From contig CM082587.2 of NCBI GenBank assembly GCA_040954595.2, positions 1,579,000-1,642,999 on the forward strand: DNA of 64,000 bases. The letters are read 5' to 3'. Made by a program: the position numbers and the translations under genes. Below are positions 35,534 through 62,818 of this stretch, piece by piece. How positions within the stretch are numbered: position 1 is the stretch's first letter; each line of letters starts with the position of its first letter. The notes beneath the pieces are model-generated. The model saw nothing but the letters and a program-made list of their open reading frames with translations, did no database searches and had not been told where the DNA came from. Source of the DNA: Balanoglossus misakiensis (lineage: Eukaryota; Animalia; Hemichordata).

Positions 35534-36128
35534 GATCTGATGGCCATTAAAAGGTCCAATCAACGTAAGTTACAGACGATATCCAGCTATACAGGTGCCT
35601 TAATTATGCTTAATCACTTCCGGTATATCCCTTATTTATTCTCGCGCAAGCGCAGACAATTCTACACACCGACATCTTCCCTTTATCTTCCACGGGAAAT
35701 TTAATATCGGCAACTATTTTAGATTCTGTTGCGTCGATTTCGATCCTCGATTTATAAAAACGAGCTCATGGTAAAGATTATTGAGCAGAGAAAGTTTTCC
35801 CCAGGGCTTGTTTGTTTTAAATCTCCAAAAGCCAGAAAGCTGAAACACTGACTGTCCGAAGTTTACTGAGACATCAGAACTGCTCATAGACAAGTCATTA
35901 TTATCATCGTTCACAAAGATTTAATAAATGCAATAGGCAAAATTACATGTGTTGGCAAAAAGTTTTACTAATACACTATGTGGCCAAAAGGAAGACCCTT
36001 TCTCTAATACCAGTAATTTCTCCCTCATATTCTCTCCGCATTTGGCCAGAATGTTTTTGGTAGTCTTTCTTAACATTTCTTCATTATTAATGTTCGCTTC
36101 ATCTCTCAGATGAGTTTGTGATTTCTGT

Positions 36129-37037
36129 TCATTGATACGGAATATTTGGGTTAGCATCTCTCACTTTCTTCCCGATTTCAGCGTCGAAAAGTTCACTTTG
36201 CGCAACGGTGAAATGATTCTTCCAATCACCAACAATTCCCTTTCGAACCCACGGGTTTTGTCCCTCTGGTATGGCTGTATGCTCCATATATAATATATCC
36301 GACGGTTTACTTTGTTTCATAGCCTCTACAGATGTGGTCGTCGCAACTCTTTGAATGTCTTCTTCACTTACAGGACGCTCAAGAAAACGCGCGATTTTCT
36401 TAATAGCTTTTGGTGGATCTTCCTTCACCTCTTCGTAGGTTACGTGGAGCACGTTGTCGTCAAGACCAAGTTTATACCACTCGATGACATGATCGGACCA
36501 TGGTGCGTGAGGGAACTTATCTTGTAAGAAATCTTTCACTGTCGCCTCCCAATTCCCAGGTGACATGACACCCTGTGCAAATGACTTCGAGAAATGGTGA
36601 AAAGAAGCACAGACATCTTTTGGATTTCGACTGATGTAGATCACTTTTGCGCCATTTTCTTTCATTTCTTGAAGAGGAAAAAATCTGGCTGCCAAGTGTG
36701 TTCTCATCAAACGTGGTGACGGGATGTCATCGATATCGACAGACGCCACTGCCTGTCGACGCAGTTCGCTGAAATGACCTGTCATTACGAAGTGTTCATC
36801 GATAAAAATCGGTTCCCCACGGCCCTTTCCATCGAAGTGACAAAGTCCCCAGTTACTGTACATAGACTGTACGACCTGTGTAAGCCAGTTGTTACCAGAC
36901 TTCGGGAACCCACAGATTACAACATCATTCGGCCGAAACTTACAGTCTTTCAGTCGACCGCTGGTTAGTTTCTCCTCATCAAAATACCGCGGGAGTGTGA
37001 TTCCATCTACTTTGACGTAATACCTGGATTCTGCCAT
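36129..37037 (-). CDS. Cytosolic sulfotransferase (SULT1-like fold), intronless, ~302 aa
   Basis: 5'-PSB loop GFPKSGNNW, catalytic-His motif PRLMRTHL, 3'-PB motif YISRNPKDVCAS, and C-terminal RKGIVGDWKNHFT. First ATG (MAESRYY) at 37037. Confidence 0.93.
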   Translation of the reverse strand: MAESRYYVKVDGITLPRYFDEEKLTSGRLKDCKFRPNDVVICGFPKSGNNWLTQVVQSMYSNWGLCHFDGKGRGEPIFIDEHFVMTGHFSELRRQAVASVDIDDIPSPRLMRTHLAARFFPLQEMKENGAKVIYISRNPKDVCASFHHFSKSFAQGVMSPGNWEATVKDFLQDKFPHAPWSDHVIEWYKLGLDDNVLHVTYEEVKEDPPKAIKKIARFLERPVSEEDIQRVATTTSVEAMKQSKPSDILYMEHTAIPEGQNPWVRKGIVGDWKNHFTVAQSELFDAEIGKKVRDANPNIPYQ

Positions 37038-37598
37038 CTCAAATTTTCCAAGCACTGGCAATCCGAGTGATTTTTGTGACCTCTTTTAAAGGGTGATCTT
37101 GTGTGACCTCGAGGTCTGCGCACTCAGGACAACAATGCAGTTGGCGCAACCAAGTTGACATGTTTAGACGATACTATCTGGTAATTTATGTGTTCAGGTT
37201 TAGAATGGCAATAGAAGTGAATCGATTTTGGTGGGCGTAGACTGCAGTTTAATGAAGTTTACAAAGATATAAATAGTTTTTCTACTGGAGGCAACAGGAC
37301 AGCATTATCATATACAGAGAACTACTGCACAAAGTTTGACTCTGAAAATGGCAAATATATACGTGATAACCTTTATTTCACTTCTGAATGACAAAGTAGC
37401 CATGGTACAGACGCCGTCAAGTGTTTTACTGCTTGACGAATTGTAGTCAAAATAAAACACGATATAAATTTCCTAAAAGTGACAGACAAATCCTTAACCT
37501 CAGTACAGTGAGTGTGAATTCATAGGAAAAAGCAAATTTGACAACATTTCTGTAAGAGATCAGCAGTTTTTAAAGCACTTCCTGATTTATAGAGAATT

Positions 37599-40500
37599 TC
37601 AATTTCTCGTTTTTCCTTTCTTCTTTGGAAGTTGTCGTTTCTCACTCATTCCTGTTTTCTTTGCCATCACTTTGCCAAATTTTCTTTTGTGAGAGTCCTG
37701 CGCCTTTTTCTTTGTTTCCATAGATGTCCTTTCCTGTTTGGTTTTCATTTTCTTGGGTTTTGTGTTTTCCATGTTCTTTCTCTTCCTCTTCAGTGACGGT
37801 TTCGTTGATTTGTGCGGGAAAAATTCTAGAAAAAGTATAAAGTGTGAGAAAATGAGTAAAATGACATGAGGTCTTGACATAAACCGCTGCTATAGCAACT
37901 GATAACAAACAACTCAAAATTTCCACTCCAAGTCTTTCCTGTTACAGGTATGGTTTTTACAAATCCATATATGGCAAGAGACGTCCATATATGGCAAGAC
38001 CCCCCCCCCCCCCCCCCATCTCCCCCAATGCCAGACAGAGATTTTAATACACCAGATTTTACCTGAATCCGGCTCTTCTCCGACTTCTTTCCGAAACCAC
38101 TCCGCATCATCCATGTCATCATCACTTGATTCATCACCATGTCTTGCACCTGAAATATTTATAATAGTACACCATCATTAGAAGTATGTTACATAGCTTA
38201 TGTGTTCCTCCAAAGGGTAGGTACAGCAGTGTGCACACCTTTATGTGCACTCGTGATGAATTCTAAAAAAAATCATGGAAATTGTCATGGAAACACAAAG
38301 GACATGATGTACTACTCACTAGCTGTAGGTGCCTCTACTTCACTGTCATCATCATTTTCTTCTGCCATTTTCTTTTTCATTCCACCCAACGATTTCTCCC
38401 TACAAACAAAGCATCACAAAAAAGAATGTTTTTCAAAGCCTCTAGACCGACAGACTCATCGTTGAGGGCGCTCTCAATAAGTATATGCTTTGACAATACA
38501 AGATTTCATTAAAGGTGAATTTCCCCAGCAAATTCATCCACTATGTTTTCATACTTATGTTTCTGTTTCAGCGTCTTCTTCTTCTCAACATTCTCTTCTT
38601 GCTGCTTTCTCCTGTTTGCTTTGATTATTCTGAGAAAAGTGAAAATAAAAACATAGTTGAGAGTACTTTGACTACCGTAATTAGCACATAGTGCAAACCC
38701 AAAACAGATAACTAGTCAGATAATGCAAAAAAATTACCGTTTCTTTTCTTTCTTCTTCTTAATTACAGCAATCTCTTCTTCTGTTTTTGTAACTGCAAAC
38801 ACAAACACAAGAATTTTGAATATTTTGTCCATTATAACCATCTTTCGCATGATATGGGGATATTTTACCAAGAGCCATTCCAAAATCTGAAACACCAGTA
38901 CTCACTGAATTCATGATGTAGGACTTCACCATCCCACAGTCCTTCTTCAATTTTCAGCAACTGCAATGTCATTCTTGGTCCTATCTGTTGGTAGATAACC
39001 AAAATATATACAGTCAATTTTCTTTTGAAAAATCATGCTTTTAAAGAACACACTCTGTTGTCTGCATGCCTGTCTAACATATCTGTCTCACCCACATAAC
39101 ATCTTCCCAGTGATCAGCACCTACCTCTATCAACCTGACAGCACTTTGTTGTGATGCAATATTTCCCCTGCTGTTCACGTTCTGTGGAAGTGTGACTTCA
39201 TTGTGAGGCCCGTCTTGTTCAGCTTCACTCTCAGACTGGTAACCAGGGCTAGTCCAAACAACAAATGTAACATGATTGCTGATTGGAAGACAATTCTGAA
39301 CTACAATTCAACTAACCAACTGAAGAACATCTTTAATTTTAACACAAACACAAATACAAAACACGTGTTTCTTGAATCTCTAAGAAATTACTTTTATGAG
39401 CACATAAAAGCATGACATCACACTTACTTGAGTAGATATTCACTGACATCATGATATCTGCCCATATTTGGAATTTTGGTCTGGATCAGTTTCTTGACAC
39501 CCTTGCTCATTCCAACAGGTACAACCTTTATTGAACTGTGGTGAAGATCATGGTATGGGTTTAAATACATTTACAATTACATATCAAACATAAAATAGTT
39601 CAACCAATGAAATGTAAGAATATTTTGTATATACTTACTAGTGCCTGAAATCGATAAGATTTGTATCAGCGTTGTAGTTAAAGAGGACACATCGTCTGAT
39701 ATGATTCAGCTGCACCTGAAGTGAAAATCAGAAAATAGATGGATTGATGTGAAGGACTGGTTTCTAGCAATGCTACTACCGGTAGCAATAAAACCTTCAT
39801 GTACATGATGCCATATCTTAATAACACAATCATTTAAAAACTTAGAGAAGAAATTAAAAAGAAGGACTCTTACTTTGTTGACATTGATTGATGGAAACAT
39901 ATTTTGAAACATGGTTGTCATGAGTTTGAAATGTAGCCCCTCCCTCGCAAAGTTGTTGAGCACTAACAGTGGATGATGTTGGAACTGTTCTGCATACATA
40001 CTGTGACGCTTCAAAGACGACACAACATCTTTACTCAAACAGTACTGAAAGAAAAAAAGACATAAATCGGTCAGTTTAGTGGTGTCCATCAGCCGCATTT
40101 CTTGGTGGCAACTTTGTGTCAGTGAAACACAGGCTCAGAAGTATACAAAGTGTTAGTTATTCATGGAGACAAATAATGAAATACTTACAGATTTTACTTT
40201 AAATGTAAGTGTCGGTCCCCTGGGAAGTCTTGCCACTTTCTGAAATGATTGACACAAAATTAGCCATTTCACAATAACACAATACTGTGGAGGACTAATC
40301 ATATACGGTATTTCTTTTAACAAAATTATGATTAGTTACTTGTCTCCAATACGGTACTATAAATGTGTTATGCTTTTTTTTCTTTCATCATCTGTGAAAG
40401 CAGATGATGATGATGACTTACAAAATTGATTCCCGTCTCTGACCGTGTAAATGCCAAGATATTGGTCACCCCTAGAGGGCCTGCCACACTCACAAAATCC

Positions 40501-41248
40501 TTCAGCACATTTTTCCTGTGAATCTGGAGAAGAAAAACCACATAATAGGCAAGGATTTGTATATCTAATATAGTAATATGTACCACCACAAACTGTATTG
40601 TATTTATAGATCACTGACCAGACAGTCATCGGACTGTGAATTCTCTCAGCAGTGAGACTTACCCTAAGACTTGATGCTGTGTATGGTTCCATGACTTTCC
40701 TTGTGTCAATCACAAGTTGCCTAATATTCCGTCCCACCAATCCACGGTGAAACACAAAGGAATGGGGTGCCCTGTTGACATCACTGTGTTCTATGATTTT
40801 GCTTGTGACCTTTGACTTCTTCTTTGCTTTACTCTATTACATGTATAAAAAACAACAGTGGCAGACTATTAAACAACATACCAAATCCTAGGGGGGTAGC
40901 TGTGGTAACGCAGCTGTAACGTTGGGGGAGGAGATACTGATTACCCCCAAGGACACTACCCCCGCCCCCAACTAGTACAGCTGCGTTACCATGGGAGAGG
41001 GGTAGCAACTCAAACCTACTCCCACACGTGGAACACATCACACTGGAGAATTGTAGCACAAAAATGACAGAATAACACATTTTCTTCTAGGTTTGGAGGT
41101 ACAGATCTGTCCATGGCGAAATTTACAACATCATCAACATGGACCTTGAATGGAGTCGAGCCGAGAGTTAGCTAGCTGCGATCTCGGAGCATATGGCTTA
41201 CTTCGATTATGTATGTGAACTAACCTTCCCTTTCTGTTTACGCGCCAT
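37599..41248 (-). CDS. PPAN: Peter pan / Ssf1 Brix-domain ribosome biogenesis protein, ~14 exons
   Basis: Exons include 41248-41225 (MARKQKGK), 40833-40663 (APHSFVFHRG...RKVMEPYTASSLR), 40523-40422 (KNVLKDFVSVAGPLGVT), 40239-40189 (RLPRGPTLTFKV), 40044-39874 (PLLVLNNF...MFQNMFPSINV), 39715-39639 (IDFRHY), 39535-39428, 39248-39125 (AVRLIE) and 38984-38906 (IGPRMTLQLLKIEEGL). Lys/Glu-rich 3' exons follow, including DDAEWFRKEVGEEPD. Confidence 0.95.
40903..40991. repeat. GC-rich inverted repeat (hairpin / MITE-like) in PPAN intron 1
   Basis: TGGTAACGCAGCTGTA (40903-40918) is the perfect reverse complement of TACAGCTGCGTTACCA (40976-40991). Inner GTTGGGGG / CCCCCAAC also pair. Confidence 0.8.
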
Positions 41249-46365: not shown

Positions 46366-46417
46366 CGTGGCCTTTTCTGATTGGTTAAAAACCGGCTTGC
46401 TGGCTACCTCTGATTGG
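46366..46417 (-). promoter_or_regulatory. Tandem ER-stress response elements (ERSE) of the HSPA5 promoter
   Basis: 46384-46366 reads CCAAT-cagaaaagg-CCACG (perfect CCAAT-N9-CCACG). 46417-46399 reads CCAAT-cagaggtag-CCAGC (near consensus). Confidence 0.88.
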
Positions 46418-47621
46418 TCAGAAGTAATCACATGGTAGAAAAAGGTGGCCTTTCCGAGAGAGTACACGTCACTTTTCAAATGGCCTCGGATATTCCGGAA
46501 GTGTACGATAATACCCGACCACCCACAAATGACAGAGTATTTTTATTTACTTTCAGAATACTGCCCTTAAACATTTACGCGAATCGTACAATTTCTCAGA
46601 TCTTCAGCTTTAAAGTGAAAAATCCAACATTACTGATCGGCTGCTCTTTACCGAGAAAATGCGTTCCATCGGCTGCTCGGATCGGAAACATGTATTTGTA
46701 ACACGATGCATGGATTGGCTCGATTTTGGTAACCTTTCAAGCTCAAAAGTCGACTTTTATCGGTTTAAACACCTATTCCTGACCAGAATACGACTAGAAG
46801 TTGACTGTGGACAAATTTTCTTTGTAAAAAAATACCCCTCTCCCTGTTTGCCAAATGACTAAATTATGCAGATTATGACTTTTGACCCCGAGAAGGACAT
46901 ATAAGGTTGTGCGTGCCAAGACATCGTTCATTTCAGTTCAATCACTTGGGCGTTTGGTAAGTGGGGAGACCTCGTGTCGACAATTTGAGACTTGCTCGCA
47001 TGACGGTAAACTTGTACGAGATCGAGATCGCACAACGTTTGCTGGTAAACAGTTATTCTCAGATGCAACGCAATGCATCAACTTCTCCGCATATTTTTGC
47101 GTGCATGCGTTGAGAAACTGGCATGGTCATGCGCTATGCGCACGTGGGAGCAGTCGAGTTGTATCAACCCTGATCAGTTCATCCGCGTGTTAGCCGCGAT
47201 AAATTGTTTTCTTACGAGAAAATATGTTGCTACTCTTGTAAAATGTCTTTCCCAAGTTGGCTGATTAATTTTGATGGAGAACTCTCCCCCATTTGAAGTG
47301 GATGGGAACCGATTTCTACGATGCCATGCCTGCGTTTCAATCATGATGGACGCCGGGTGAAAAGTACACAGTCAATTTACATGATGATCATGTATGCATT
47401 TCCCTCGCTCGATCAGTTTGACATTTACTTAACAGAAAGAAGCCAAATTCATAATTTGCCCTTAACTTTACACCCTTTTTTGCTTATTAATATAAGCAAT
47501 AATGTTTTTTTGAAATGATTGAAAACCAATGTTACCTGTGTACATATCCTGCATGCGTGCGCATAACTTGAAACAGGCGTTCAGCGGAACACGTGGTGAT
47601 GAAATGCACACATTTACACTA

Positions 47622-47704
47622 CCATGTATTTATGATGAAACCTGATAGGGACAAATGAATATGATGATTATTCACTATTGGATCGATAGGACTGAAATAC
47701 ATGG
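47622..47704 (+). ncRNA. SNORD74: Box C/D snoRNA, SNORD74 (U74)-like
   Basis: 10-bp terminal stem CCATGTATTT/AAATACATGG; C ATGATGA 47632; D' guide GATAGGGACA-a-ATGA in the same register as human U74 GGTAGGGACA-t-CTGA; C' 47661; D CTGA 47692. Confidence 0.8.
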
Positions 47705-47891
47705 AATTGTAATTCTTTGTATCTATAAAAACTGTCAGACATGTATGATGAAACTAATATATTTAAACTTCTTGCTCCCGCAGAAGAAGAGTATGGAGAT
47801 CCAAAGAAGAGGAAATCTGCAATTAAGATCATGTAAATATCAAAATTTTACAAAATGACTATTTTATTAAATTACTGAAGTAAAATAATCA

Positions 47892-47992
47892 AATGTTGCA
47901 CATATGATGATTCTCAGATTAGGGACATAAGACAAAACCATGGTTAGTTCCATTAATTAAATGGGACATAGGACGGTCTGAAGTGTCGCATT
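47892..47992 (+). ncRNA. Box C/D snoRNA, possible diverged U74 paralog
   Basis: C ATGATGA 47904, D CTGA 47978, imperfect terminal stem. Contains TAGGGACA like the preceding snoRNA and sits at the expected intronic position. Confidence 0.55.
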
Positions 47993-48439
47993 GGACAATT
48001 TTTGATGTTGATTGTTGTTAAGTAGATGTCATATATTGAACTTGTCTTTTTTTGTCAGGTGAATTTGCATCTTCCTGTATAACTTACCCAGAGGAGTGAA
48101 AAAGAAAGGTAAGGTTGGTTGCATTTTTATGGAGGATAAAAAAATCCTACATCACAGTGGAACATTTCATTCAGAAACATGTGCCACACAGCTGGCAACT
48201 GCTAAGATCAGTCAGTCAGCTGGTGTTATTGTTTTGAAATATGATGTGGCCCTAATGAGCTGGCCAATCACAGATCGACAAGTTTTTATAAAGCGAATTG
48301 CAACACTTATAGACATAAAACTATTTTCTAAAAATACTTTAAATTGCTGAGCCCTAAATAGAAATGTGCAGGTTTGATAACTGTATTGGCCTTTTATTGT
48401 ACAAAAATATGGTTTGGCAATATTAGTGAATGGTCTTCC

Positions 48440-48518
48440 TTATGCCAATGATGTGAACTTTTATTTGCTACTCCTGAAAGTGTAATGACGACAAACCACC
48501 AAGATCTCTGAGGCATAA
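48440..48518 (+). ncRNA. Box C/D snoRNA, U76/U24 family (dual guide)
   Basis: Stem TTATGCC/GGCATAA; C ATGATGT; D' guide TATTTGCTACTC-CTGA (U76 register); C' ATGACGA; D guide CCACCAAGATCT-CTGA (U24 register). Confidence 0.9.
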
Positions 48519-48735
48519 TGGTTACTCAGTTGATTCTTCTCTGAATTTGTCAAAGTTGAAGTTACTGATAACCGTTTACTTAATTTACAGGATGTTGACA
48601 TGCATTCCATAGTTGATGGACGCTGTTGTCATACAATCGTAAGTTGTTTTCATAATTTTCTCCCTACGTGCCCTATAATTCTCTGTATGTTCCTAGATAT
48701 ATGTGACATAGGTTCCTTGTATGCAAATTTTTTCC

Positions 48736-48826
48736 GAGGCATTCCAGTGATGATAATGTTTGAGTGATCCATCTGATTTGCTTGCAAAACTGATGACAAC
48801 TCTTGGTCCTATCTGATGTATGCCTT
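48736..48826 (+). ncRNA. Box C/D snoRNA, family unassigned (D' guide complementary to 5.8S rRNA 5' region)
   Basis: Stem GAGGCAT/ATGCCTT; C GTGATGA 48747; D' CTGA 48773 preceded by GAGTGATCCA; C' CTGATGA; D CTGA 48813. Confidence 0.82.
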
Positions 48827-49050
48827 GTGTCAAATAATCGGACCATCAAATACTGGTCAGTTGAACGTTTTGATTAACCAAAGTATTTTCAATTTGCAGA
48901 TTGTCCACAAGATCGATATACATGAGGAGAGATGGAGATTAGGTAGGTTTTCATCTGTTGCAGTAGAAATTTCTTGTATTCCAGAAGCATTTTTTGTCTG
49001 GCCAAATCACAACTGTAGGGGAACTATCCAAGCCATGCATTGTTAAAAAT

Positions 49051-49131
49051 ATAACCAATGATGTCTATATACCAAGCCTTCAAGGTTCTGAATAATATTG
49101 TTGAAATTATTCCCAGGTATTCTGAGGTTAT
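49051..49131 (+). ncRNA. Box C/D snoRNA, family unassigned
   Basis: Stem ATAACC/GGTTAT; C ATGATGT 49058; D' CTGA 49088 after CTTCAAGGTT; D CTGA 49122. Confidence 0.78.
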
Positions 49132-49283
49132 CATTCATACGGCATATGTTATTATTTCTATTGATTAATATGCTAATTGCTCCTTCCTTCCATTTTACAG
49201 AATGCCGACTTTCCATGGAAACGGCTTTACAGGTATGGAGTTTAGTATATTATTGCTTATGTCTGTAAAGTCGATCATTTGGC

Positions 49284-49368
49284 ACCGTCAATGATGCTAC
49301 TCGTTGTCTTCAAGGTTCACTGAATCACAGTGTTGAAAAACACAATTAGCGGATTCCTCTGAGACGGT
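49284..49368 (+). ncRNA. Box C/D snoRNA, family unassigned (D guide complementary to 28S GGAAUCCGCUAA)
   Basis: Stem ACCGTC/GACGGT; C ATGATGC 49291; D' CTGA 49320 after CTTCAAGGTTCA; D guide TTAGCGGATTCC-t-CTGA 49359. Confidence 0.85.
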
Positions 49369-49647
49369 TTGCGTGATTTGAAAAAAAAATAAAAGTATAT
49401 ATAAAGCCATTTGATGATAACATTGCAAATGTTTGAGGTCAAGGTAAAGTTCAGCATTTTAATACTTTTTTATGATTTAATTTATAGTGAATGGAGACGG
49501 TATTGCTGATTTTTACCTAGACAGTGATGCAGGATGGGACAAGTGCTCTCTCCTAAGTAAGTGAACTCGTGGAAACCAGAACTTTTCCTTCACCACTGCA
49601 GACCATTGACGCCCCAGTCCATACATGAAGATTATAGAAATATTTGT

Positions 49648-49739
49648 CAAGCTCTCAATGATGACTGCATAGTTCAGCTGATTATAAAAATGACGAATAA
49701 CTAGCTTCTTGTCTTTCGCTCCTATCTGAGATGAGCTTG
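49648..49739 (+). ncRNA. SNORD80: Box C/D snoRNA, SNORD80/77 (snR60)-like
   Basis: C ATGATGA 49658; D' guide GCATAGTTCAG-CTGA; C' ATGACGA; D guide GTCTTTCGCTCCTAT-CTGA. Both guides match human U80 as I recall it. Confidence 0.9.
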
Positions 49740-49935
49740 GTAAAATAAAGTCATGACAAATTTCAATCGGTCTCTTCAACTCTGACTAAAACCCTTTTTC
49801 TGTGTACATTTCAGTTAAGTTTACCCATTCTGAAGTACTGAAATCTAACTGGTAAGTTGAAGTTCTTCTCGCACCTTTTCCTGAATTTGCTAGTATTGGC
49901 TTCAAGTTTTCCCCAAAACAGTGAAAAACTTGGAG

Positions 49936-50034
49936 AGTCTTGTGATGAGAAAAATATGATGCTGATCTTGCATATGATGGCTGGAGTTGCATATATTGTA
50001 ACTTCAGTATCACTATTAGCTCTAACTGAAGACT
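49936..50034 (+). ncRNA. SNORD44: Box C/D snoRNA, SNORD44 (U44)-like
   Basis: Stem AGTCT/AGACT; C GTGATGA 49942; D guide ATTAGCTCTAA-CTGA as in human U44; internal hairpin 49981-50007. Confidence 0.87.
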
Positions 50035-50243
50035 GGAGAATACGTGGAGCTGTGGACAGAAGTTCAAAGCTGTGAATTTAACAAGAATGAAATTTGACTT
50101 GGTTTGTGTATTTTTATTGGCAGGTGACAAGTAAAAGAAATCGGAGATGAGATGGACTTGAAAGTTTCACTGACAAAGGTATAAGAATAGTTGCATTTTC
50201 AGCGTTCGTATCTTACCATAATGAACTTGAATCATAACATCTG

Positions 50244-50333
50244 GCATCACCAATGATGTTCAACAACTAATTCTGCCAATATGAATATGCCCGTGAAATG
50301 AACTTTTTTTAACCGTTCAGTCTGAGATGATGC
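50244..50333 (+). ncRNA. Box C/D snoRNA, SNORD47-like copy A
   Basis: Stem GCATCA/TGATGC; C ATGATGT 50253; D' guide AATTCTGCCAAT-ATGA; ACCGTTC before D CTGA 50322. Confidence 0.82.
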
Positions 50334-50498
50334 TTAGACCATTCATATATAGACTGACCCGAACTTGTTTTGCGAGATGTTGTAACCATTTTCTTCCTTG
50401 TCTCTATAGGCCTACATTTCCAGTGATTCTGGAGTCTTAAAAGGTGAGCTCACAATATTAACCAGACAAATGGGAAGGTAGTGGACTTGCCATAATAA

Positions 50499-50574
50499 GA
50501 CACCAATGATGAACACCTAATTCTGCCAAATGATTTTCCGGTGATATGAAACTTCCGTTCTTTTCTGAGGTGTC
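50499..50574 (+). ncRNA. SNORD47: Box C/D snoRNA, SNORD47 (U47)-like copy B
   Basis: Stem GACACC/GGTGTC; C ATGATGA 50506; D' guide ATTCTGCCAA-ATGA in the human U47 register; C' GTGATAT; CCGTTC; D CTGA 50565. Confidence 0.87.
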
Positions 50575-50802
50575 AACTTCGCAATGTATAAAATATGGTC
50601 ATTTTATGTTCTTTGCTACAAGTTTCCTGTATGTGGGCTGCCTTTCCTATACCACTCATTTCATGTTGACTGTATCACTTACAGGGTTATATGAAAGATG
50701 AATGGACAGAGATGGCCAGTCACAACCAAGAGTTGGCAGTTTGACAGACGTGTCAGGTATGTGTAAAACAAATTACATCCTTTGGCAGAATGGTGAAAGG
50801 TT

Positions 50803-50889
50803 CAATGTGGATGATGCCAACTCTATTTGTGGGAATCTCTCTGAATAACAACTGAAGAGATCACAATACAAATATTTCTGACACCATTG
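50803..50889 (+). ncRNA. SNORD79: Box C/D snoRNA, SNORD79 (U79)-like
   Basis: Flanking CAATG/CATTG stem; C ATGATGC 50811; D' guide TGGGAATCTCT-CTGA as in U79; D CTGA 50878. Confidence 0.86.
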
Positions 50890-51058
50890 TCTTTTCTTGG
50901 TGTTGATAAATTCTGACTCTTCATGACTACAAGTTAATAAAGTTGTCTGTATACTTTGCAGGTGTTGTTGTTAACCATAGATGTCACCAAGCCATCATGA
51001 GCTCAACTATTCAGGTTAGTAAGATTGTCAATTCTGAAAAAAGGCATATGAATGTTTT

Positions 51059-51126
51059 TGCAAAATGATGAAATGATTTGAACTCTCTCACTGATGTTCC
51101 ATGAAGTCAAATCAAGATCTGATGCA
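51059..51126 (+). ncRNA. SNORD81: Box C/D snoRNA, SNORD81 (U81)-like
   Basis: Stem TGCA/TGCA; C ATGATGA 51065; D' guide TTGAACTCTCTCA-CTGA as in U81; D CTGA 51119. It lies in the last intron, as in GAS5. Confidence 0.87.
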
Positions 51127-51504
51127 TCTGTTGTCCTCATCACATGTCCATGCTGCACCCCCAATCATGAAACGTAACGTCACTGAATTTCTACATGGTT
51201 TTGTTCCTTTGCAGATGCAGCCCATGGTGCTACAGATCTCCAAGCTGTATTTTATCGATTTGTCATGTACTTTATTGAATATTGATATACAAAAATAAAA
51301 CTACTACAAATGTATATAATGTCTTGTTTATAACAATGCACACACATGCAGCTGCTAGTATGAGCCAGCAATGCAGATTTGAAATAAATTCTGCCAACTG
51401 TAAAAATAATTTAATGACTAGAAGTTGGGCACTCAAAATATGCTAACAAGTAGTCTGGCCGTTGTTTGACCTGGCATTACACTGAAGAATATTTAAGTTG
51501 ACCG

Positions 51505-54184: not shown

Positions 54185-54763
54185 GTTTGATATTTAACAA
54201 AAATGCTCCCCTATCTTTACCAAAATAGTTACATGATGTGTTCACATTGTAGAAAATCAAGCCGCTTAGGGAGCCTCTTTGCTCATTTCTTTATACATGT
54301 AACTGTTCTTTGTTTACAAGGATGATAATGATGTTGTTGTTGTTGATGATGATGACTGTTAAAAGCGTTCCTGAAAGGACAACTGCGACTATATTTACTT
54401 AAAATAAATTAAAAACAATGCGATGTGACAGTATTAATAAAATGTTTTATTTCAAGAATAATCACAGCGAAATGCACTTTTACTCTCACATACATTACAC
54501 CATTCCTACACATACTTGTCTATGTTCCATCATTTTCAAGAGACCTTTGGTGATACAATGACAGCACTGATCAATATCACATTGCAAAGACACGTGGGTG
54601 GAACAGACTTTAATGTAATGATGCTGTGGGTTTGATCCCTTGCATGAGCATCTTCTCAACAAGTGTCAATATGTACTATACGTAGTACACACAATGGGTT
54701 TGTTTAGCCATATCTTTGCCTTGGCAGTTGAAGTCTATAAACATATAGTTCTGTCGGTTGATG

Positions 54764-55429
54764 CTATTTGTATCTTGATGTATAATACTCCTCTTCCACT
54801 TCATACAGATCAACGACTACTTCATCTCTCAACTGCATTAACTTGCGGTCATAATCTGTCTGTGTAGCTTTCAAATACTGAGTCCTTTGAGCAATAGATT
54901 CATTGACAGATGGAAAGTCATTCAGAATTAGAAATTGTTTAATATCTGCAGTCAGCTTCATTAGTGATTCTCCTGCCCGCACCTGAGAAAAAAATAGAAA
55001 AATTATATTTAGTCCATATTACAATGTTTATGAGAATAATGAATATGAATCAAGAGTTAATTGTATGTGTAATTCACCAGTTACTTACAATATTGGATGC
55101 TCGGACATGAATCTCATTGTGTTCCTGTTCTGCCTGTGTGAATCGAGACACTTGCGTCTCTTCTTCAACCTGTGCAAAGGAACCATGATAGAAACAGGTC
55201 AGCAACATACAGGTCATTTTATTGAAATATTCCAAAGCTGCATCTCCACAGTTTGCATCACCCTAAGATCGCTAACTGGAACTGTAAGCGGCGCTTAACT
55301 CACCTTTCCTAATTTCACTATTTCTGTGAAGTTATCCAGCATTGATTTGACATCGTCTTTCAGTCTCTTGTTGTAAGACTTCAGCAAATTGTCTTTACTT
55401 TGTGACATGGTACGCTGTGAAGCTGCCAT
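54764..55429 (-). CDS. MED22: Mediator subunit 22 (Surfeit 5), 3 coding exons, 141 aa
   Basis: Exons 55429-55304 ([31 protein letters not shown]), 55169-55089 (EIHVRASNI) and 54982-54764 ([28 protein letters not shown]...EEEYYTS). Confidence 0.96.
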
Positions 55430-55500
55430 ATTTGTTTACTGAAAATAAATCAAAAATAAAATAAGTTCCATGAATTACTACTACTGTCCCACAACTGTTA

Positions 55501-55552
55501 ATCATCATCATCATCATCATCATCATGATCATCATCATCATCATCATCATCA
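55501..55552. repeat. (CAT)n microsatellite in the MED22 5' intron
   Basis: Visible atcatcatc run. Confidence 0.92.
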
Positions 55553-55894
55553 CAATCAGAGTGCTCAATTCACTTCTCCACCTCAGAGTTCAACTGTCGG
55601 AGGCCAAGGGCTGTGACAGTGTGAATCCGAAGGCTGATCTTCAGTAGAATTTTTTTACTGAGCTGATCTTTGGCCATCATATTATTAGTTTACACTGGAA
55701 ATAATGCGAGGGGTGATTCACATCGACACATGTGTATGATGTGCTGTGCAGTGTTGAAAAACACGGTCGTACAACTAAGCCAAGAAAGGGCGATGCCGAA
55801 CCACACGCACCACAGTCAATGTACTAAGAGACTTAACAAAACGCCGTAAATCCAATTGGTATTTGCGCAAGTTTTGCCATACAATCAGGGTTCC

Positions 55895-56021
55895 TACCTG
55901 GCGAGTTTTCAGACCCGGAAGTTCATGCGCGCAGCCATATGCAATCCCACAATTCAATGTAACATCCCGCAAAATCTCGCCAAGCGCGGTATGAGAACGG
56001 CCTCTTTTCGTGGCTGCCAAG
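55895..56021. promoter_or_regulatory. Bidirectional MED22/RPL7A promoter with TCT/5'TOP initiator
   Basis: CpG-rich; ETS-type CCGGAAGT at ~55915; TGCGCGCA; pyrimidine tract CCTCTTTTC at 56001 just upstream of the RPL7A ATG; minus-strand donor for a MED22 non-coding exon at ~55898. Confidence 0.75.
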
Positions 56022-58190
56022 ATGGTGGGTACAGTGCTACGCTGACCAAAGGAATTATATCGAGGAAAATCGGTCGCATCCTCGAGCTCAATATTTTTGT
56101 ATTCGTGTAGTTCAATAAATAAGAATATAAATGATATATTTCAGTTACAATTAGAATGTTTTAAACTCAGTAAATGGCTTATCTGGCTCTATGTTGATGA
56201 TGTTATTGATGTCAAGTTACACATGTACCTTTCAGTCTGTGGTGGAATGATACCCATGTTGCAGACTAGACTTTGACTAACGATCATAATTTCGTTCGGG
56301 AGATGTGTTAGGACCCTTCTATAACATCAGTTTCGATTTATGTTTTGTTTGCGCAGCCTAAAGTCAAGAAGACGACTAAGGGGAAGAAGGTAGCCCCGGC
56401 CCCCTATGCTGCCAAAACAGCAGCACCAAAAAAAGTGGTCAACCCACTTTTTGAGAAGAGGCCAAAGAACTTCGGTATTGGTAGGTACACTGTCTACTTT
56501 ATATTCTAGTGACTATTGTAGTTTTTCTTCTAGCAAATAAGGTATTGTCTCCTGGGATCCAGAATCTAAAAAGTTCACCAGTAATAGAGTATGTTGTCAA
56601 TGTCTCCATGGAGGTACTAGGTCTCCAAGTATATTGGCTGTATCTGGAATCTAATTGCAATTGATCACTGTAGCAATTACCCTTTTCAACCACCTTACCA
56701 GGTCAGGACGTTCAACCTAAGAGGGATCTGACAAGATATGTGAAGTGGCCTAAATATGTGCGTTTGCAACGTCAGAGAGCAGTTCTGTACAAGAGACTGA
56801 AAGTGCCCCCAGCAATCAACCAGTTCACCCAGACTTTGGATAGGCAAACAGGTAAAGTGGTCTGTCACAGTTTGCAGTGTGCTGAAATATACGCATGTCC
56901 AACAGGTGCATATTTCAGCACAGTCTTCTGCAAAGTTTCTCTCTTGCCCTGCCAGCATAATACTTCAAACACATTGCCTATGATGAGTATTGATATTTGC
57001 TAGTTGAAAACACTGTGATATCAACAATATACACTACCAAAAATTTTACCTGAGGCACAAACTAACACAAATGTAGCCAATCTTGTGAAGTGAAAATAGC
57101 CTCATAAAAAGATGTTTCTTTGCTGAACTGTAAAAAGTGTTGATTTTTATATTTCAGCCACCCAGCTTTTTAAACTACTGAATAGATATCGACCAGAGAC
57201 AAAACAAGAAAAGAATGCTCGTCTCAAAGCCAGGGCAGAAGAAAGAACAAAGGGAAAAGATGATGTACCAACAAAGAGACCCCCAGTGGCTAGATCCGGC
57301 GTCAACACAGTCACAGCACTTGTAGAAAGCAAAAAGGCACAACTGGTTGTCATTGCTCATGATGTTGACCCCATTGAGGTAAATCTTCACTTCATCACAT
57401 TTATAATGAAGGTACTCATTTCCAAAGATGGTACGAAATAGATATGGAAACTAATGTATCTGCCCTTTCTGCAATGATGCTTTGAATTTCTTCACCTGAA
57501 AAGTCATGTTGATCAACAATTCGAGCTTTTTAACCCTGAGCAGAAAGTGGGCATCAGGGAGGAAGGACAGGTTTCTGTATAATCTTTGTCAACTCTCTAA
57601 TATTGATTATTTTCCTACCTAGATTGTTCTCTGGTTGCCTGCTCTGTGCCGTAAGATGGGTGTGCCATACTGTATTGTGAAAGGCAAAGCAAGGCTAGGA
57701 GCAGTGGTCCATAGGAAGACCGCTACCTGCCTTGCATTCACCTCGGTCAATCCTGAAGATAAACCATCCCTCAACAAGCTCATTGAGGCAGTGAAGACCA
57801 ACTACAATGAAAGATACGATGAGGTAAAGCATAAAGAGACTCGCTATATACTATGGCATTATTCTGGCTACTTTGTTTTGCACAGTTCGAGGAGTTGACT
57901 ATAAAATCAGTATGCCCCTCTGCAATGATGGTTTGAATTTCTTCACCTGAAAAGGCCATGTTGAACAACAATTCGAGCTTTTTAACACTGAGCAGTATTA
58001 CTATAAAGGGCATCCCTTGATGGTAGATCCTTCCAATCTCGTCAACACGGTCAGAGTTTACATTTCATGTCATTTGTCTTTTCAGATCCGTCGTCACTGG
58101 GGTGGTGGAATCATGGGTGCAAAATCCCAGGCACGAGTTGCCAAGCGAGAGAGAGCAAAGGAGAAGGAATTGGCAAGCAAGATGGGATAA
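56022..58190 (+). CDS. RPL7A: 60S ribosomal protein L7a (eL8, Surfeit 3), 6 exons, 267 aa
   Basis: Exons 56022-56024 (ATG), 56357-56480 ([14 protein letters not shown]), 56702-56851 ([16 protein letters not shown]...VPPAINQF), 57158-57378 ([16 protein letters not shown]), 57623-57823 ([22 protein letters not shown]) and 58086-58190 (RRHWGGG). Confidence 0.98.
56975..57057 (+). ncRNA. SNORD24: Box C/D snoRNA, SNORD24-like (degenerate D guide) in RPL7A intron 3
   Basis: Stem TGCC/GGCA; C ATGATGA 56980; D' guide GATATTTGCTAG-TTGA (U24 D' register); D CTGA 57050 preceded by decayed CTACCAAAAATTTTAC. Vertebrate RPL7A hosts U24. Confidence 0.8.
57467..57545 (+). ncRNA. SNORD36: Box C/D snoRNA SNORD36 (snR47) copy A, RPL7A intron 4
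   Basis: Stem TTCTGC/GCAGAA; C ATGATGC; D' guide TTGAATTTCTTCAC-CTGA; D guide CGAGCTTTTTAACC-CTGA. Confidence 0.92.
57920..57995 (+). ncRNA. SNORD36: Box C/D snoRNA SNORD36 (snR47) copy B, RPL7A intron 5
   Basis: Near-identical paralog of copy A with the same two guides; stem CTGC/GCAG. Confidence 0.92.
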
Positions 58191-58736
58191 AAACTGGACA
58201 CTGGCACATAAAAGCATGAAACATACTGCTGTGTAATTACCATTCAAATAAAAAATATGAACAGGAAGTCTGTTAGCGACTTTAATATTAACGTGTTTTT
58301 TGATTATTTTTCCCCTGAGCAAGTGTGTTTACTAGTGGATGGATGAATGAATGGAGAATTTACAGGTGAAGTAATTCCTCAGTAACAGTCATGCAGGAGA
58401 ATTTTATAAAACTACCTAAATTGTGTTTAATGTCAAATGCAATGAGCATTTCATTACTGGAGGGAAAACTTCCAAAAGACTACTATTAATCACCCTTCGG
58501 GTAGAAACTGCAATTGATGGTCTCATAACACGAATTGTCAGGGTGCCTTGGAGTGCTGCAACCTATGAGGATGGGCCTTCTGAGGAACTGCACACTGCTG
58601 GGAAGTTGCTGGTCTCACACTTGAAAGTTTCAGCCTATGTCAGCCTGTCATCATCTGGCTCTAACTGAGGCTTTACAAATTGCAGTGTGGGATACATCAG
58701 GCCTTACACGATGTAACTCGCATAGCCAGACACACA

Positions 58737-60856
58737 TTACACAACTGGCCTGATTGGTTTCTTCTTCTTGTACACAGCGTAATACCACATGACAGTGGTG
58801 ATCACACACAGACTGTACCTGAAAGCAAAAAAGTTCTCAGTATCAGAGACTATTTTATAAGGGTGATGCCCTGCTGAACTTTGCTGAAGATTCCCCATAG
58901 AATATCAATACAATACATCATGAAATTCTCACCATCAAAACACTGAATTTTCATGTACACATACATACCATGTGATAAGATACTGCATGTGTTCATTTCT
59001 TAGAGTAACTCTTGTTTGGCCACCATATGGTCCTCCTGGAACCGTACTTTCTGAAATCATAAAGCCATACACAATGAGATATGGTTTACCATTACAAAGA
59101 AATATAGCTGTCTGGTTGGTTGGTTGGTTGGTTTTCAAAGTCCAAAATCAATTGTTTTCGTCAAAAGAAAAAAATAAACTTAGGAGCAAAAACACTCACT
59201 GAGATCGGCATCAACAAGTATTGGCTCAGTGCCGGCATATTTCGCCATGGCTGGAATATCCCGATATGTCCACCGATTTTTATTTTTGTCGTTATCTGGA
59301 GAAAACGGGACCCTCTGTGAAAATGGAAAACAGTGTAGTAAGAATAGTGACATCAATTTGTCAGCAGTGCTCCCAGTAGTTTGGATGTGTTCATTGCCAG
59401 AAATGCATCATGCCCCCCTGCAAAGTTTGCCAACAGCCATTCATGCTTTCTTTAGATCACCAATCAGGAGCAGCAAACTGAAAGTGAAAACAAGTTCAAG
59501 TATTCTTACCTTCTCTGAACCTCTAATAACAGCCACCATTTCAACTTCTCCTTTGATCTTTAAAAAGAAAATATTTCAGATTGTATTTTCATGTGGCCAA
59601 AATAGTGAATGTTGGCATTTTGTGGGAGAATCTTACTTGGATGAAGACAACAACTGTATGACTGAATTAACACAGCCTGATGTCACTTACCTGTCCTTCG
59701 GGGCGAGTTGCTGGATCAATTTTATTTCTGGGCACCCATCCACGATTTACTAAAATAGTAATACTGCAGGCAATGACAAAATGAAAGAGAATGAATATTA
59801 AAATATTATGCATGCTCAAGGGAAGACAATTAAAATTCCAAAAGTTTTGTGTAGGAACACTTCATCACCATTTCAATAGTTCATCCTGCAATACCTACCC
59901 CAAATCTGTACAGCGGAAAGGAGTGATAACCCAAGCTCCTGATTGGCTAGCTGTTGAAATGAGACCACCCCCAGCTCCTTCGCTGTTACCTTGCTGATAC
60001 AATGAGCGTGGTGTCATGTACACCTCTCTTGAATGGTCAAACTCTCCTCGGATCTTTACTGGTCTATATTCCAGTTTTGCAAGTTCATCAGGACTGAAAA
60101 GTTGACAAAACACAATTTGACATGTCTTTATATGTATAATAGTAATTCTCTCCCATAATGCTACGCTGAATGACCCATCAATGCCACATTGTACATTACC
60201 AATAGCTCATTTCATGGAATATACGCTAGTCACAATCCCACCAGATTTCCCAAGTATCATAAATACTTACTCGGTTGGTAATTCAATGGGTTCTGACTGG
60301 GTTCTCACACTCATATCATGAATTAATCCCAGCTTCCATTTTCTTCGCTGCACCTGCCAAGTTCCAAGACAGAACGTCGTGACTGGGATGATCAGCAAAG
60401 CATTGCCAAACCCAGTCCTGCCGGCTTCCTCTGCAGTTTTAGTTGCCGTTTGGGTGAAATGTCTGTTGGCCCCAAGTGGTGACCCTTGGTACCTATTGCA
60501 CACCTGTAAAAATTATAAAGACTGATTTGTTAGCTTGGCTTCCTGGCCACATATTTTTGTTTCCAAACTTTTTCTAAATTTCCAAAACTTTATCACTGCA
60601 GTTTAGCCAGTCAAACACTCATCATCATGACATCACCATGTTGACAGCATACGTACAGAACTTTAACTTTTGATTTTTCACTTTCGAATAACTCCAAGGT
60701 CAAAACTCCAAGGAAATGATACCACTGCACTGATACTAGTAGTTCGGATAGGTGCAGCACCCCCCTCCCCCCCTGCTTACGCAACATCAACAACACGCTA
60801 ATTACCTTTGCGGTCGTAGTTTTTAGCCAAGTAAATATTCTTCCACGAAAAGCCAT
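58737..60856 (-). CDS. SURF1: Surfeit locus protein 1 (cytochrome c oxidase assembly factor), ~8 exons
   Basis: Mitochondrial-targeting-like [13 protein letters not shown]; [23 protein letters not shown]; [17 protein letters not shown]; GAWVITPF; ILVNRGWVP; [26 protein letters not shown]. Stop at 58737. Confidence 0.96.
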
Positions 60857-61021
60857 TGTGTAGTTGTACACATCGGCCACATCAAACTACTGTCCTTTTG
60901 ATGACACTGCCTTACAATCTACGTGCAACTCGGTCTGTATGTACGAGGCACATAATGTTTTCCTTTGAACAACCTTTGACCAGGAAGCACTTATTGCATT
61001 GTGGGTAATCGAGTTCCAATC

Positions 61022-61914
61022 ATGGCGCCTGGTCAACGTGAGTTAGAGGGTTTACAGAAACAACTTCAGGAGGAGCTTGATAAGTTGAAAAATGTACAGA
61101 AAGGTAGGACGCGAATTTCGGGACCGGTAAACATTCATGCGTGGAATTCAAATGATGCTTCAGCAGTCGGACGTATGAATAACACTTGTGAACATTCTCT
61201 ACTTCTGTACTAGACAGACTGACAAATCTTACCTGAGTTGAAATTAATCATAATGTTTCATTTCTGGGAAATGTGACATCACTAGTATAGTTTTGCAATT
61301 TGATACGCATAACAGTGTTTGGTAGAACATTTATGTATGCATTACAGTATTGACACCTGCTTATTTTAATTGGTCTTTTTCAGATTATCAAAAGTCCCTT
61401 TCAAATAGACAAAAACTAGAATCTCAAAAGAATGAGAACAAAATGGTAGAAGAGGTAAGTGTGTTTCAAAACCAAACAGATATGATAAGTTTCACCTTTG
61501 GTTTTTGAAAGGTTATCATGTAACCCATTACTTTACGTTCAATTTTCTCCCACTTTTCACTCCAGGAGCTAAATCGACTAGATAGTGGTGCAGATGTCTA
61601 CAAAATGCTGGGTCCGGTGTTGATCAAACAAGATTTAGAAGAAGCAAAACAGAATGTAGGCAAAAGAATGGAATATATTACTGGGGAATTGTAAGTATAT
61701 AGCCAAGTGCTCTCTCTCGAGCAAAGGGATGTTGCAGAATTTTAACTTAGTCGAAGTAATTTAAAAGCTGAACCATTACTAATGTGCATTTTTCTTATTT
61801 TGCAGGAAAAGAACAGACAACATGATTAAGGACTTAGAGAAAAGACAAGAATCACACAGAGAAGCTTTAGGGAAAATACAACAGAAATTCCAACAAGCCC
61901 AAACCAAGAAGTAG
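61022..61914 (+). CDS. PFDN6: Prefoldin subunit 6 (KE2), 4 exons
   Basis: Exons 61022-61103, 61384-61454 (RQKLESQKNENKMVEE), 61566-61690 (VYKMLGPVLIKQDLEEAKQNVGKRMEYITGE) and 61806-61914. Confidence 0.95.
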
Positions 61915-62436
61915 ATGCACCCTCTTAGAACTACCTTTTAGACAAAAATATTTAAGTTATGTTTTTGAAACTGTGATAGCTTAGGCATAGATGATCAGAT
62001 GTAAACAAAAATCAACTTCAATTACACAAAAAGTAGATAAATGAAAAAAATGTAAAATTCAAACAGTGTCGTCTCTTCACATGTGTTTGCTTCTGTGTAT
62101 TCTTAGTATTTCTATTTCAGTTTTCTCGCCCTCAATTATTCAGTGTTTAAGAATCCTAATAGGTGAATTTTAGTTCCATGGTACATTTTGTCACAGATTA
62201 TTAGCATAAATATGTATCAACAGGGACAGCTGAATGTCAGAAAGAATCTTACCAATTCTGGAGCTGAGGGGATAAATTAGAAGATGTTCTTTTCTGTACT
62301 TTTTGTATAAATGCCCCAATGTTTGTCAAGCTTTTTTTACTTCAACTTTTAAAGGGTTAACTTTGCTTTCATAAGTGGATTTGAATAAAAGCATTGAAAT
62401 TCATAAAAACAAGGTTGGTTGTGTTTTTATTAGATT

Positions 62437-62744: not shown

Positions 62745-62818
62745 GGGCCTAATATAACGAGTGCGCATGCGTGGACCAATGTTGTCAAGCGTTGCTAGCA
62801 AGCGACCTGTCAGCTGCA

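Follow-up and report, generated by a model that had tools for sequence, protein, structure and literature searches.

A predicted polycistronic box C/D snoRNA host gene of the acorn worm Balanoglossus misakiensis as a probable ortholog of vertebrate GAS5

Results

Box C/D Units and Exon Model of the Locus

The window analysed in this study is a 64,000-nucleotide (nt) stretch of the genome of the acorn worm Balanoglossus misakiensis (GenBank assembly GCA_040954595.2, contig CM082587.2, positions 1,579,000 to 1,642,999 of the forward strand), and our subject is an apparently empty gap in it of approximately 4.4 kb. The original prediction had placed in this gap a gene hosting small nucleolar RNAs (snoRNAs) and probably orthologous to GAS5, an lncRNA (long non-coding RNA) gene described mostly in vertebrates, with at least 13 tiny non-coding exons, canonical splice sites, a terminal AATAAA and about 12 intronic box C/D units, about one per intron. 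When both strands of the window were scanned for units having a C box, a D box and a terminal stem, we found a dense run at 47632-51122 on the + strand. Within 46929-51320, the scan called 12 non-overlapping units (designated units U1 to U12) on the + strand and none on the - strand, as compared with a mean of 0.53 and a maximum of 3 units in dinucleotide shuffles of the same interval, none of which (0/1000) reached at least 12. In addition to the C and D boxes and the terminal stem, internal D' and C' boxes were present in all 12 units. The terminal stem appeared in the predicted structure of each of the eight units folded (8 of the 12 were submitted), and the whole-unit folding energy was unremarkable in six of these eight, as is expected for C/D RNAs.

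In the predicted gene, 13 exons with lengths of 27-106 nt are separated by 12 GT-AG introns, every intron holds exactly one unit (12/12), and an AATAAA is present at 51294 (Table 1); the architecture proposed in the original prediction was thus recovered, as a predicted one. The exon model was built by hand from donor and acceptor scores together with reading of the sequence. One donor and one acceptor lie between each pair of neighbouring units, and the distance from the D box to the 3' splice site is 75-94 nt in 10 of the 12 introns, with 158 and 116 nt in the remaining two. These splice signals and their spacing, like the boxes and stems, are observed directly in the DNA. They bear on the explanation that the snoRNAs are real and are not released by splicing, being derived from an exonucleolytically processed polycistron or from separate genes, with splice sites arising by chance. 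Two weak splice sites and the purely predicted status of the junctions would suit such an explanation, but the donor and acceptor found between every unit pair, the D box-acceptor distance shared by 10 of the 12 introns, and the presence of one TATA box and one poly(A) signal make it highly improbable.

The spliced model of 642 nt contains 8-15 stops per frame and no long open reading frame (ORF), the longest ATG ORF being 63 codons. We rejected a protein-coding host, as the ORFs are short and most exon lengths are not multiples of three. A strong acceptor at 49601 was also rejected, as it leaves a 45-nt intron with no good donor behind it, and so was an H/ACA snoR110 match at 47442, which is AT-biased and has an E value of 0.37. 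The 827-nt first intron may hold extra exons. The predicted start, whose position was derived from TATA spacing, reads TTCATTTC, which is pyrimidine-rich, A-interrupted and initiator-like, and is not a clean 5' terminal oligopyrimidine (5'TOP) start. The start of RPL7A in the same window is CTCTTTTC, a clean 5'TOP. Both kinds of start are reported for vertebrate hosts in the accessible part of bioRxiv 10.1101/487496.

Table 1. Features of the predicted host gene and of the related RPL7A units (positions in the window; GA, Rfam gathering threshold; L001 and L006, reference ribosomal DNA contigs).
Feature	Position	Strand	Evidence or remark
TATA box (TATAAG)	46900..46905	+	~30 nt before predicted start; sequence
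Predicted exon 1	46930..46956	+	Start inferred from TATA spacing
U1, intron 1, U74-like, D' guide to U74 site	47632..47695	+	Rfam Me28S-Cm2645, clan CL00069, 27 bits, below GA 48
Predicted exon 2, weak donor, first ATG inside	47784..47832	+	Splice-site scores
U2, intron 2, diverged U1 duplicate, no convincing target	47904..47981	+	Alignment z 3.6 with U1
Predicted exon 3	48059..48108	+	Splice-site scores
U3, intron 3, dual guide: D' to U76 site, D to U24 site	48448..48511	+	Rfam SNORD24 64.9 bits, GA 41
Predicted exon 4	48591..48638	+	Exon model
U4, intron 4, no family assigned; U80-like 3' end; D' guide tentatively to 5.8S	48747..48816	+	Guide score 10.5
Predicted exon 5	48900..48942	+	Splice-site scores
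U5, intron 5, U6 paralog, outside the GAS5 families; D' matches weakly near 28S U81 region	49058..49125	+	
Predicted exon 6	49201..49232	+	Splice-site scores
U6, intron 6, outside the GAS5 families; D guide with a 12-bp match to 28S A1503 (L001), D' score 11.5 (C404)	49291..49362	+	
Predicted exon 7, acceptor uncertain, alternatives 49437 and 49487	49521..49556	+	Splice-site scores
U7, intron 7, U80/U77 (snR60) dual guide	49658..49729	+	Rfam snR60/Z15 66.2 bits, GA 41
Predicted exon 8	49815..49851	+	Splice-site scores
U8, intron 8, U44-like, 18S A160 (L006) addressed by D guide	49942..50029	+	Rfam Z102/R77 19.3 bits
Predicted exon 9	50124..50178	+	Splice-site scores
U9, intron 9, U47-like, U10 paralog, guide register shifted one base	50253..50325	+	SNORD47 15.8 bits
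Predicted exon 10	50410..50443	+	Splice-site scores
U10, intron 10, U47-like	50506..50568	+	Rfam SNORD47 37.7 bits, E 1.5e-4, below GA 50
Predicted exon 11	50685..50756	+	Exon model
U11, intron 11, U79-like, A2768 (L001)	50811..50881	+	Rfam SNORD79 32.4 bits, E 0.027, below GA 47
Predicted exon 12	50962..51014	+	Splice-site scores
U12, intron 12, U81-like, A414 (L001)	51065..51122	+	Rfam SNORD81 30 bits, E 0.017, below GA 50
Predicted last exon 13, AATAAA at 51294-51299	51215..51320	+	Splice-site scores
R1, U24-like unit, RPL7A intron 3, U3 paralog	56980..57053	+	Alignment z 3.9 with U3
Two SNORD36 copies, RPL7A introns 4 and 5	57469..57996	+	Rfam 75.6 and 76.9 bits, GA 30; splice landmarks

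Guide Identities and rRNA Targets

As ribosomal RNA (rRNA) references, we used animal-type ribosomal DNA (rDNA) contigs in public metagenome-assembled genomes (MAGs; L001, L002, L003, L004, L006 and L008), which come from other animals; L005 was left out, as it has only a degraded 18S piece. This degraded animal 18S fragment lies on a symbiont MAG contig (L005/L007), and whole animal-type rDNA contigs occur in several other MAGs; animal rDNA in public prokaryote assemblies is contamination. The base paired to the fifth nt before D or D' was taken as the methylated one. By this rule, complementarity to the 28S rRNA of L001 places the targets at C2779 (unit U1, D'), A2768 (unit U11, D'), C1722 and A1734 (unit U3, D and D'), A965 and G1056 (unit U7, D' and D) and A414 (unit U12, D'). 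The chicken sites listed in Table 1 of PMC2653536 are C3330 for U74, A3319 for U79, C2112 for U24, A2124 for U76, A1469 and G1560 for U80, A413 for U81 and 18S A165 for U44. The offsets between targets are equal to those of that chicken table, namely +11 from U79 to U74, +91 between the two U80 sites and +12 from U24 to U76. Expected-site guides with chicken offsets were found in units U1, U3, U7, U8, U11 and U12, and units U9 and U10 are assigned by Rfam only. The guide side (D' or D) is the same as in chicken in all seven families (7/7). Units U2, U4 and U5 showed weak target matches, and unit U6 matched a site outside the chicken table.

A guide score of 10 was reached by 63 of 600 random 20-mers, 10.5 by 36/600 and 12 by 14/600, and the weight of the guide evidence is in the matching of expected sites, not in single scores. 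Since a single score is weak evidence under this null, the extra guide predictions are tentative: unit U1 D (12), unit U6 D (12) and D' (11.5), unit U4 D' on 5.8S (10.5) and unit U5 D' (9.5). The D guide of unit U1 has a 12-bp match to a second 28S site. We noticed that this guide (47681-47695) and a unit in the metagenome locus L049 (4784-4851) appear to target the same 28S adenosine (A2824, L003); the match in L049 to this site, read by eye, spans only 8 bp. A2824 is possibly, on the basis of these matches, an invertebrate methylation site outside the chicken table.

The original prediction had also named Rfam matches to the SNORD families of GAS5 as a check. At the gathering threshold (GA), only two of the 12 units pass, unit U7 (snR60/Z15) and unit U3 (SNORD24); the SNORD47, SNORD79 and SNORD81 matches all fall below the thresholds of their families (37.7/50, 32.4/47 and 30/50 bits, respectively), and no rows named SNORD74, SNORD76 or SNORD44 were present among the units in the Rfam listing, which hides same-clan overlaps. 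The match of unit U1, fly Me28S-Cm2645, is a clan-mate of SNORD79. The D guide of unit U8 is identical to that of Z102/R77 in Rfam, and U44 is shown by this guide without a SNORD44 row. Unit U8 shares 15 identical nt with the human U44 primer and unit U7 shares 16 nt with the human U80 primer, as given in the primer list of PMC10743478; overlaps of the units with the human U75, U76 and U78 primers of that list were 7-8 nt, a background level. Neither the identification of unit U2 with U75 nor that of any unit with U78 was accepted, since the primer overlaps of 8 nt do not exceed background; unit U2 sits in the slot of vertebrate U75 without U75 likeness. Units U4, U5 and U6 gave no match above noise to known families, and unit U4 was rejected as a proven U80 paralog, as it is outside the top 14 aligned pairs. 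The first 12 nt of unit U5 (window 49053-49129) are those of the human U47 primer, but the guide differs; unit U5 may be an offshoot of U47, or the shared end may be a widespread terminal motif.

An all-versus-all alignment of the units indicated local paralogs, with z scores of 7.8 for U9/U10, 4.8 for U5/U6, 3.9 for U3/R1 (R1 being a unit in RPL7A) and 3.6 for U1/U2. Since z reaches 3.5 in some unrelated pairs, the paralogy of U3/R1 and of U1/U2 rests also on their shared guides.

Comparison with Vertebrate GAS5 and Fly Hosts

The 12 units represent nine families, and seven of these are among the nine families of the chicken gas5-like host: U74, U76, U77/U80, U44, U47 (in two copies), U79 and U81. 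This is the cargo that the original prediction had named, with U74 first and U81 last, and it is present by guides or by Rfam. For nine families drawn from the 72 rRNA-guide families of the chicken table, the overlap has a P of ~8e-7, which becomes 5e-6 with U74 and U79 merged and 9e-4 with only the five Rfam-supported GAS5 families.

According to the sections of PMC2653536 on the chicken gas5-like host, U74 is in intron 1, U75 in 2, U76 in 3, U80 in 4 and 5, U44 in 7, U78 in 8, U79 in 9, U47 in 11 and U81 in 12; chicken and human cargo orders are equal except for U77/U80, and within-host duplication and transposition of units are frequent in fish and frog. The order read along the window differs from that of chicken by one inversion, U47 standing before U79 (7 of 5040 permutations), and from that of human, with unit U7 in the late U80 slot, by three (76/5040). 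The intron indices of U74, U76 and U81 (1, 3 and 12) are the same in the window and in chicken. Like vertebrate GAS5 (human 1q25; chicken CR387333), the locus is ~4 kb long and has many exons shorter than ~100 nt, one C/D snoRNA per intron, a TATA box and no long ORF, and the seven guide families use the same guide side. In contrast to vertebrate GAS5, U47 precedes U79, U74 and U47 are duplicated, U75 and U78 are missing, the U76 copy also bears the U24 D guide, three non-GAS5 units are present, the predicted start is not a clean 5'TOP, and the neighbours are HSPA5 and a MYND-finger gene.

Since seven of nine families are shared, the guide side agrees in seven of seven, and the order is one inversion off, this locus is probably, judged from its sequence, the acorn-worm ortholog of vertebrate GAS5 by descent. 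Orthology by snoRNA cargo, as originally proposed, is thus upheld by the shared families (7/9, P ~8e-7) and their order (7/5040), but not by the whole cargo, as U75 and U78 are absent and units U4-U6 are foreign.

Drosophila Uhg1-8 are, as described in the accessible text of PMC3396368, likewise spliced non-coding invertebrate hosts of mostly C/D snoRNAs. A polycistronic non-coding host is ordinary in invertebrates, as in the fly Uhg genes, and the novelty here is the GAS5 identity only. In supplement 1 of PMC4430873, fly Me28S-C2645a is in Uhg3 and Me28S-A2634c in Uhg7; from the clan match and the 11-nt site offset, we infer that these are the counterparts of U74 and U79, which in the fly would then be in separate hosts, in contrast to the acorn worm.

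We also scanned metagenomes with the U81 guide, which yielded 55 stretches in 51 loci, none of them GAS5-like; Rfam covered 10 of these loci, the C/D and target scan 14, and motif searches all 51. Other GAS5 guides, sought before a D-type box with one mismatch allowed, were found in 0 of the 51 loci, and the same guide-motif search recovers nine sites in the window. In the 10 loci compared with Rfam, U81/U26 stood beside SNORA62-, SNORA38- and SNORD41-like RNAs with no other GAS5 family, and in one of the 51 loci (L019) no C/D unit was called. The largest set, of 42 loci (40 linked by blastn and two added by eye), is a different multi-snoRNA cluster, from a group of eukaryotes. In L049, L027, L023, L037, L013 and ~37 relatives, it consists of a C/D unit, a SNORA62/38-like H/ACA RNA, a SNORD41/Z17-like RNA, one to three U81 copies and more C/D units, and in L049 it is tandemly duplicated. 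A tblastx search of the related U81 cluster loci gave no convincing coding exons, and viral contigs scanned for the 28S motif and the U80 guide gave no matches. Because the U74 and U79 counterparts are split in the fly, and the U81 loci lack other GAS5 guides, the GAS5 grouping appears not to be universal in animals.

These data bear on the alternative that the acorn-worm locus is an independently assembled polycistronic host, whose overlap with GAS5 would be convergent, brought about by mobile snoRNAs. Such hosts do arise repeatedly, as the fly Uhg1-8 genes and the metagenome U81 cluster illustrate, no deep positional conservation of snoRNAs across supergroups is reported in the accessible part of PMC3511168, and neither a common flanking gene nor similar exons are available for comparison. 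We nevertheless consider this alternative very unlikely in view of the cargo (P 8e-7 to 9e-4), the order (P 0.0014 to 0.015) and the three equal intron indices; moreover, we know of no reason for the co-hosting of these seven guides, and in flies the counterparts of U74 and U79 occupy different hosts.

A Dual U24/U76 Guide and the RPL7A Units

We found that unit U3 bears both a D' guide to the U76 adenosine and a D guide to the U24 cytidine 12 nt upstream. The original prediction had called a U76-like unit, which agrees with the U76 D' guide, but the dual U24/U76 nature of the unit was missed, its Rfam family being SNORD24. In the window, R1 in RPL7A intron 3 has kept a D' guide to C1736, which is +14 from the U24 cytidine and equivalent to chicken C2126, and its D guide has decayed. 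In chicken, as reported in the relevant part of PMC2653536, C2112 and C2126 are the targets of the RPL7A copy, and A2124 is the sole target of the gas5 copy; in Table 1 of that paper, GGgCD38 (U24) and GGgCD39 (U76) both have U24 of yeast and plants as their functional homolog. Unit U3 resembles yeast and plant U24 (Rfam SNORD24) in guiding a C and an A 12 nt apart. In contrast to vertebrate U24/U76, where the chicken C guide is in the RPL7A copy, both guides are here in the gas5-like copy.

The RPL7A cargo of the window, a U24-like unit and two SNORD36 copies, is the same as that of chicken RPL7A; as the link of RPL7A with U24 and U36 is kept, host links in the Surfeit block were stable. Most simply read, the U24/U76 pair would go back to a local duplication, older than the acorn worm-vertebrate split, between two adjacent hosts, and to later loss of the shared D guide in opposite copies.

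Genomic Neighbourhood

Pfam searches of 13 window pieces identified HSP70, zf-MYND, Med22, L7Ae, SURF1, prefoldin, ChaC and sulfotransferase domains, and five pieces had no match. The HSP70 protein ends in RDEL, which identifies it as BiP/HSPA5, and a search of the PDB identified an Ssf1/PPAN homolog. HSPA5 is the head-to-head neighbour of the host gene, and the Surfeit block MED22-RPL7A-SURF1 lies 5 kb away from the host. On the - strand upstream of HSPA5/BiP, a perfect CCAAT-N9-CCACG motif, which we take to be an endoplasmic reticulum-stress element, is present at 46366-46384, approximately 500 nt from the TATA box of the host. From this arrangement, the divergent HSPA5 and host genes may share a promoter region.

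The Surfeit-type block at 54500-64000 consists of MED22 (-), RPL7A (+, six exons), SURF1 (-), a prefoldin subunit, presumably PFDN6, and a protein kinase from 62819, which we take to resemble STKLD1. At 34430-41000 (-), a ChaC-like gene, a sulfotransferase gene of a hemichordate-expanded family and PPAN/Ssf1 stand in a row before HSPA5. The top 11 matches of the single-exon sulfotransferase (36.1-37.0 kb) were all from hemichordates (Ptychodera, Glandiceps and Saccoglossus), at 41-51% identity, and by this one gene the genome is probably that of an enteropneust hemichordate. In the 1-34000 region, we observed scattered exon-like ORFs on the - strand (7151-7456 and 13665-13958) without Pfam matches.

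In the human genome, we take HSPA5 and the Surfeit genes to be at 9q33-34, PFDN6 at 6p21.3 and PPAN at 19p13. The regions 1q21-q25, 6p21.3, 9q33-q34 and 19p13 are described as paralogous in the accessible text of PMC1309616. An ancestral linkage of the block, split by the vertebrate genome duplications, is plausible; no paper on HSPA5 in the amphioxus proto-MHC (MHC, major histocompatibility complex) was found in the literature searched. Human GAS5 is located between DARS2 and ZBTB37 at 1q25, according to the accessible part of PMC6789762. Flanking by these two genes is a supporting criterion used between human and mouse, and is not expected over the present distance.

The neighbourhood also bears on the alternative that the acorn-worm gene does go back to the same ancestral host, yet GAS5 is only one of several vertebrate hosts co-orthologous to it, a larger ancestral cluster having been partitioned after the vertebrate genome duplications. 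Units U4-U6 and the D guides of units U1 and U3 are not GAS5 cargo, the U24 D guide is in RPL7A in chicken and here in a non-coding host, and the neighbours, by their human positions and the paralogy described in PMC1309616, map to several MHC-paralogous human regions, all of which would fit a partitioned cluster. The foreign units, however, match no vertebrate family above noise, so that nothing ties them to a second host, and all seven assignable families point to a single host, in its order. This alternative therefore seems to us unlikely.

Discussion

Several observations weigh against the orthology of this gene with GAS5. The hand-built exon model has two weak splice sites, the exon 2 donor and the exon 7 acceptor, and its predicted start lacks the clean 5'TOP that RPL7A has in the same window. 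No more than two of 12 units pass the Rfam GA, and the family of one of these (unit U3), SNORD24, is an RPL7A snoRNA in vertebrates. The 12 units include neither U75 nor U78, and units U4, U5 and U6 (3/12) are foreign to GAS5. The U47 duplex cannot form with the rRNA references, which differ at the site and come from other animals, and a single guide score of 10-11 often arises by chance (63/600 random 20-mers reach 10). Most of the negative control, 42 loci, is a single set of mutually related loci, and only 17 of the 51 loci extend 3.4 kb upstream of U81, enough for U74 at the spacing of the window. The flanking genes, HSPA5 and a zf-MYND gene, are not DARS2 and ZBTB37, so human microsynteny is not shared. 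Finally, snoRNAs are mobile over deep time, with no deep positional conservation across eukaryote supergroups according to what is accessible of PMC3511168.

By analogy with the biology of GAS5, the SNHG genes and Uhg, expression of the acorn-worm gene may proceed as follows. RNA polymerase II would start approximately 30 nt after the TATA box, and the spliceosome would excise 12 lariats carrying one unit each. Each lariat would be debranched, trimming would then proceed as far as the boxes, where the core C/D proteins are bound, and the fibrillarin complex would 2'-O-methylate the rRNA base paired to the fifth nt before D or D'. The 642-nt spliced RNA would be a by-product, probably cleared by nonsense-mediated decay.

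As for the history of the gene, we somewhat favour a scenario in which GAS5 predates vertebrates and goes back to an ancestral deuterostome host situated beside Surfeit/RPL7A in a proto-MHC block. U24 and U76 would have arisen there by local duplication of a yeast-like dual guide, with the shared D guide kept in opposite copies, and the vertebrate genome duplications would have left GAS5 at 1q25 and RPL7A at 9q34. The host of the deuterostome ancestor would have carried at least U74, U76, U80, U44, U47, U79 and U81. The acorn-worm lineage would have duplicated three units locally (U1/U2, U5/U6 and U9/U10), and U75/U78 on the one hand and units U4-U6 on the other may have been gained or lost on one side.

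No report of GAS5 outside vertebrates was found in the literature searched (subscription journals were outside its scope), and genome annotations may list some of the snoRNAs. Searches on GAS5 in amphioxus, sea urchin, hemichordate, Saccoglossus and Ciona gave nothing on the subject among the matches listed, and the accessible text of PMC3349704 makes no mention of GAS5. U76 is noted in Trichoplax in the accessible part of PMC2655684, where the homology between human and Trichoplax of hosts like GAS5 is called "virtually impossible to determine". Host exons evolve neutrally, as stated in the available text of PMC11405852. Spliced lncRNAs are rarely traceable beyond vertebrates. Cargo and its order offer a handle on lncRNA descent that needs no exon similarity. 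The interest of the locus is in the extension of the range of GAS5 beyond vertebrates and in the history of U24/U76, not in its architecture, and no new mechanism is implied.

If the orthology is true, GAS5 would date to the common ancestor of acorn worms and vertebrates and be among the oldest spliced lncRNA genes traceable by descent, and, if confirmed, it would provide a counter-example to the idea that snoRNAs drift freely between locations, over a span of more than 500 million years. The U24/U76 pair would be a dated, testable case of guide subfunctionalisation, and the locus predicts rRNA methylation sites, some of them outside the chicken table, for an unstudied phylum. The riborepressor role of GAS5 is described as recent, in apes, in the accessible part of PMC6789762. 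If the present identification is confirmed, the delivery of snoRNAs would be the ancestral and conserved job of GAS5, older than its tumour-suppressor and riborepressor roles.

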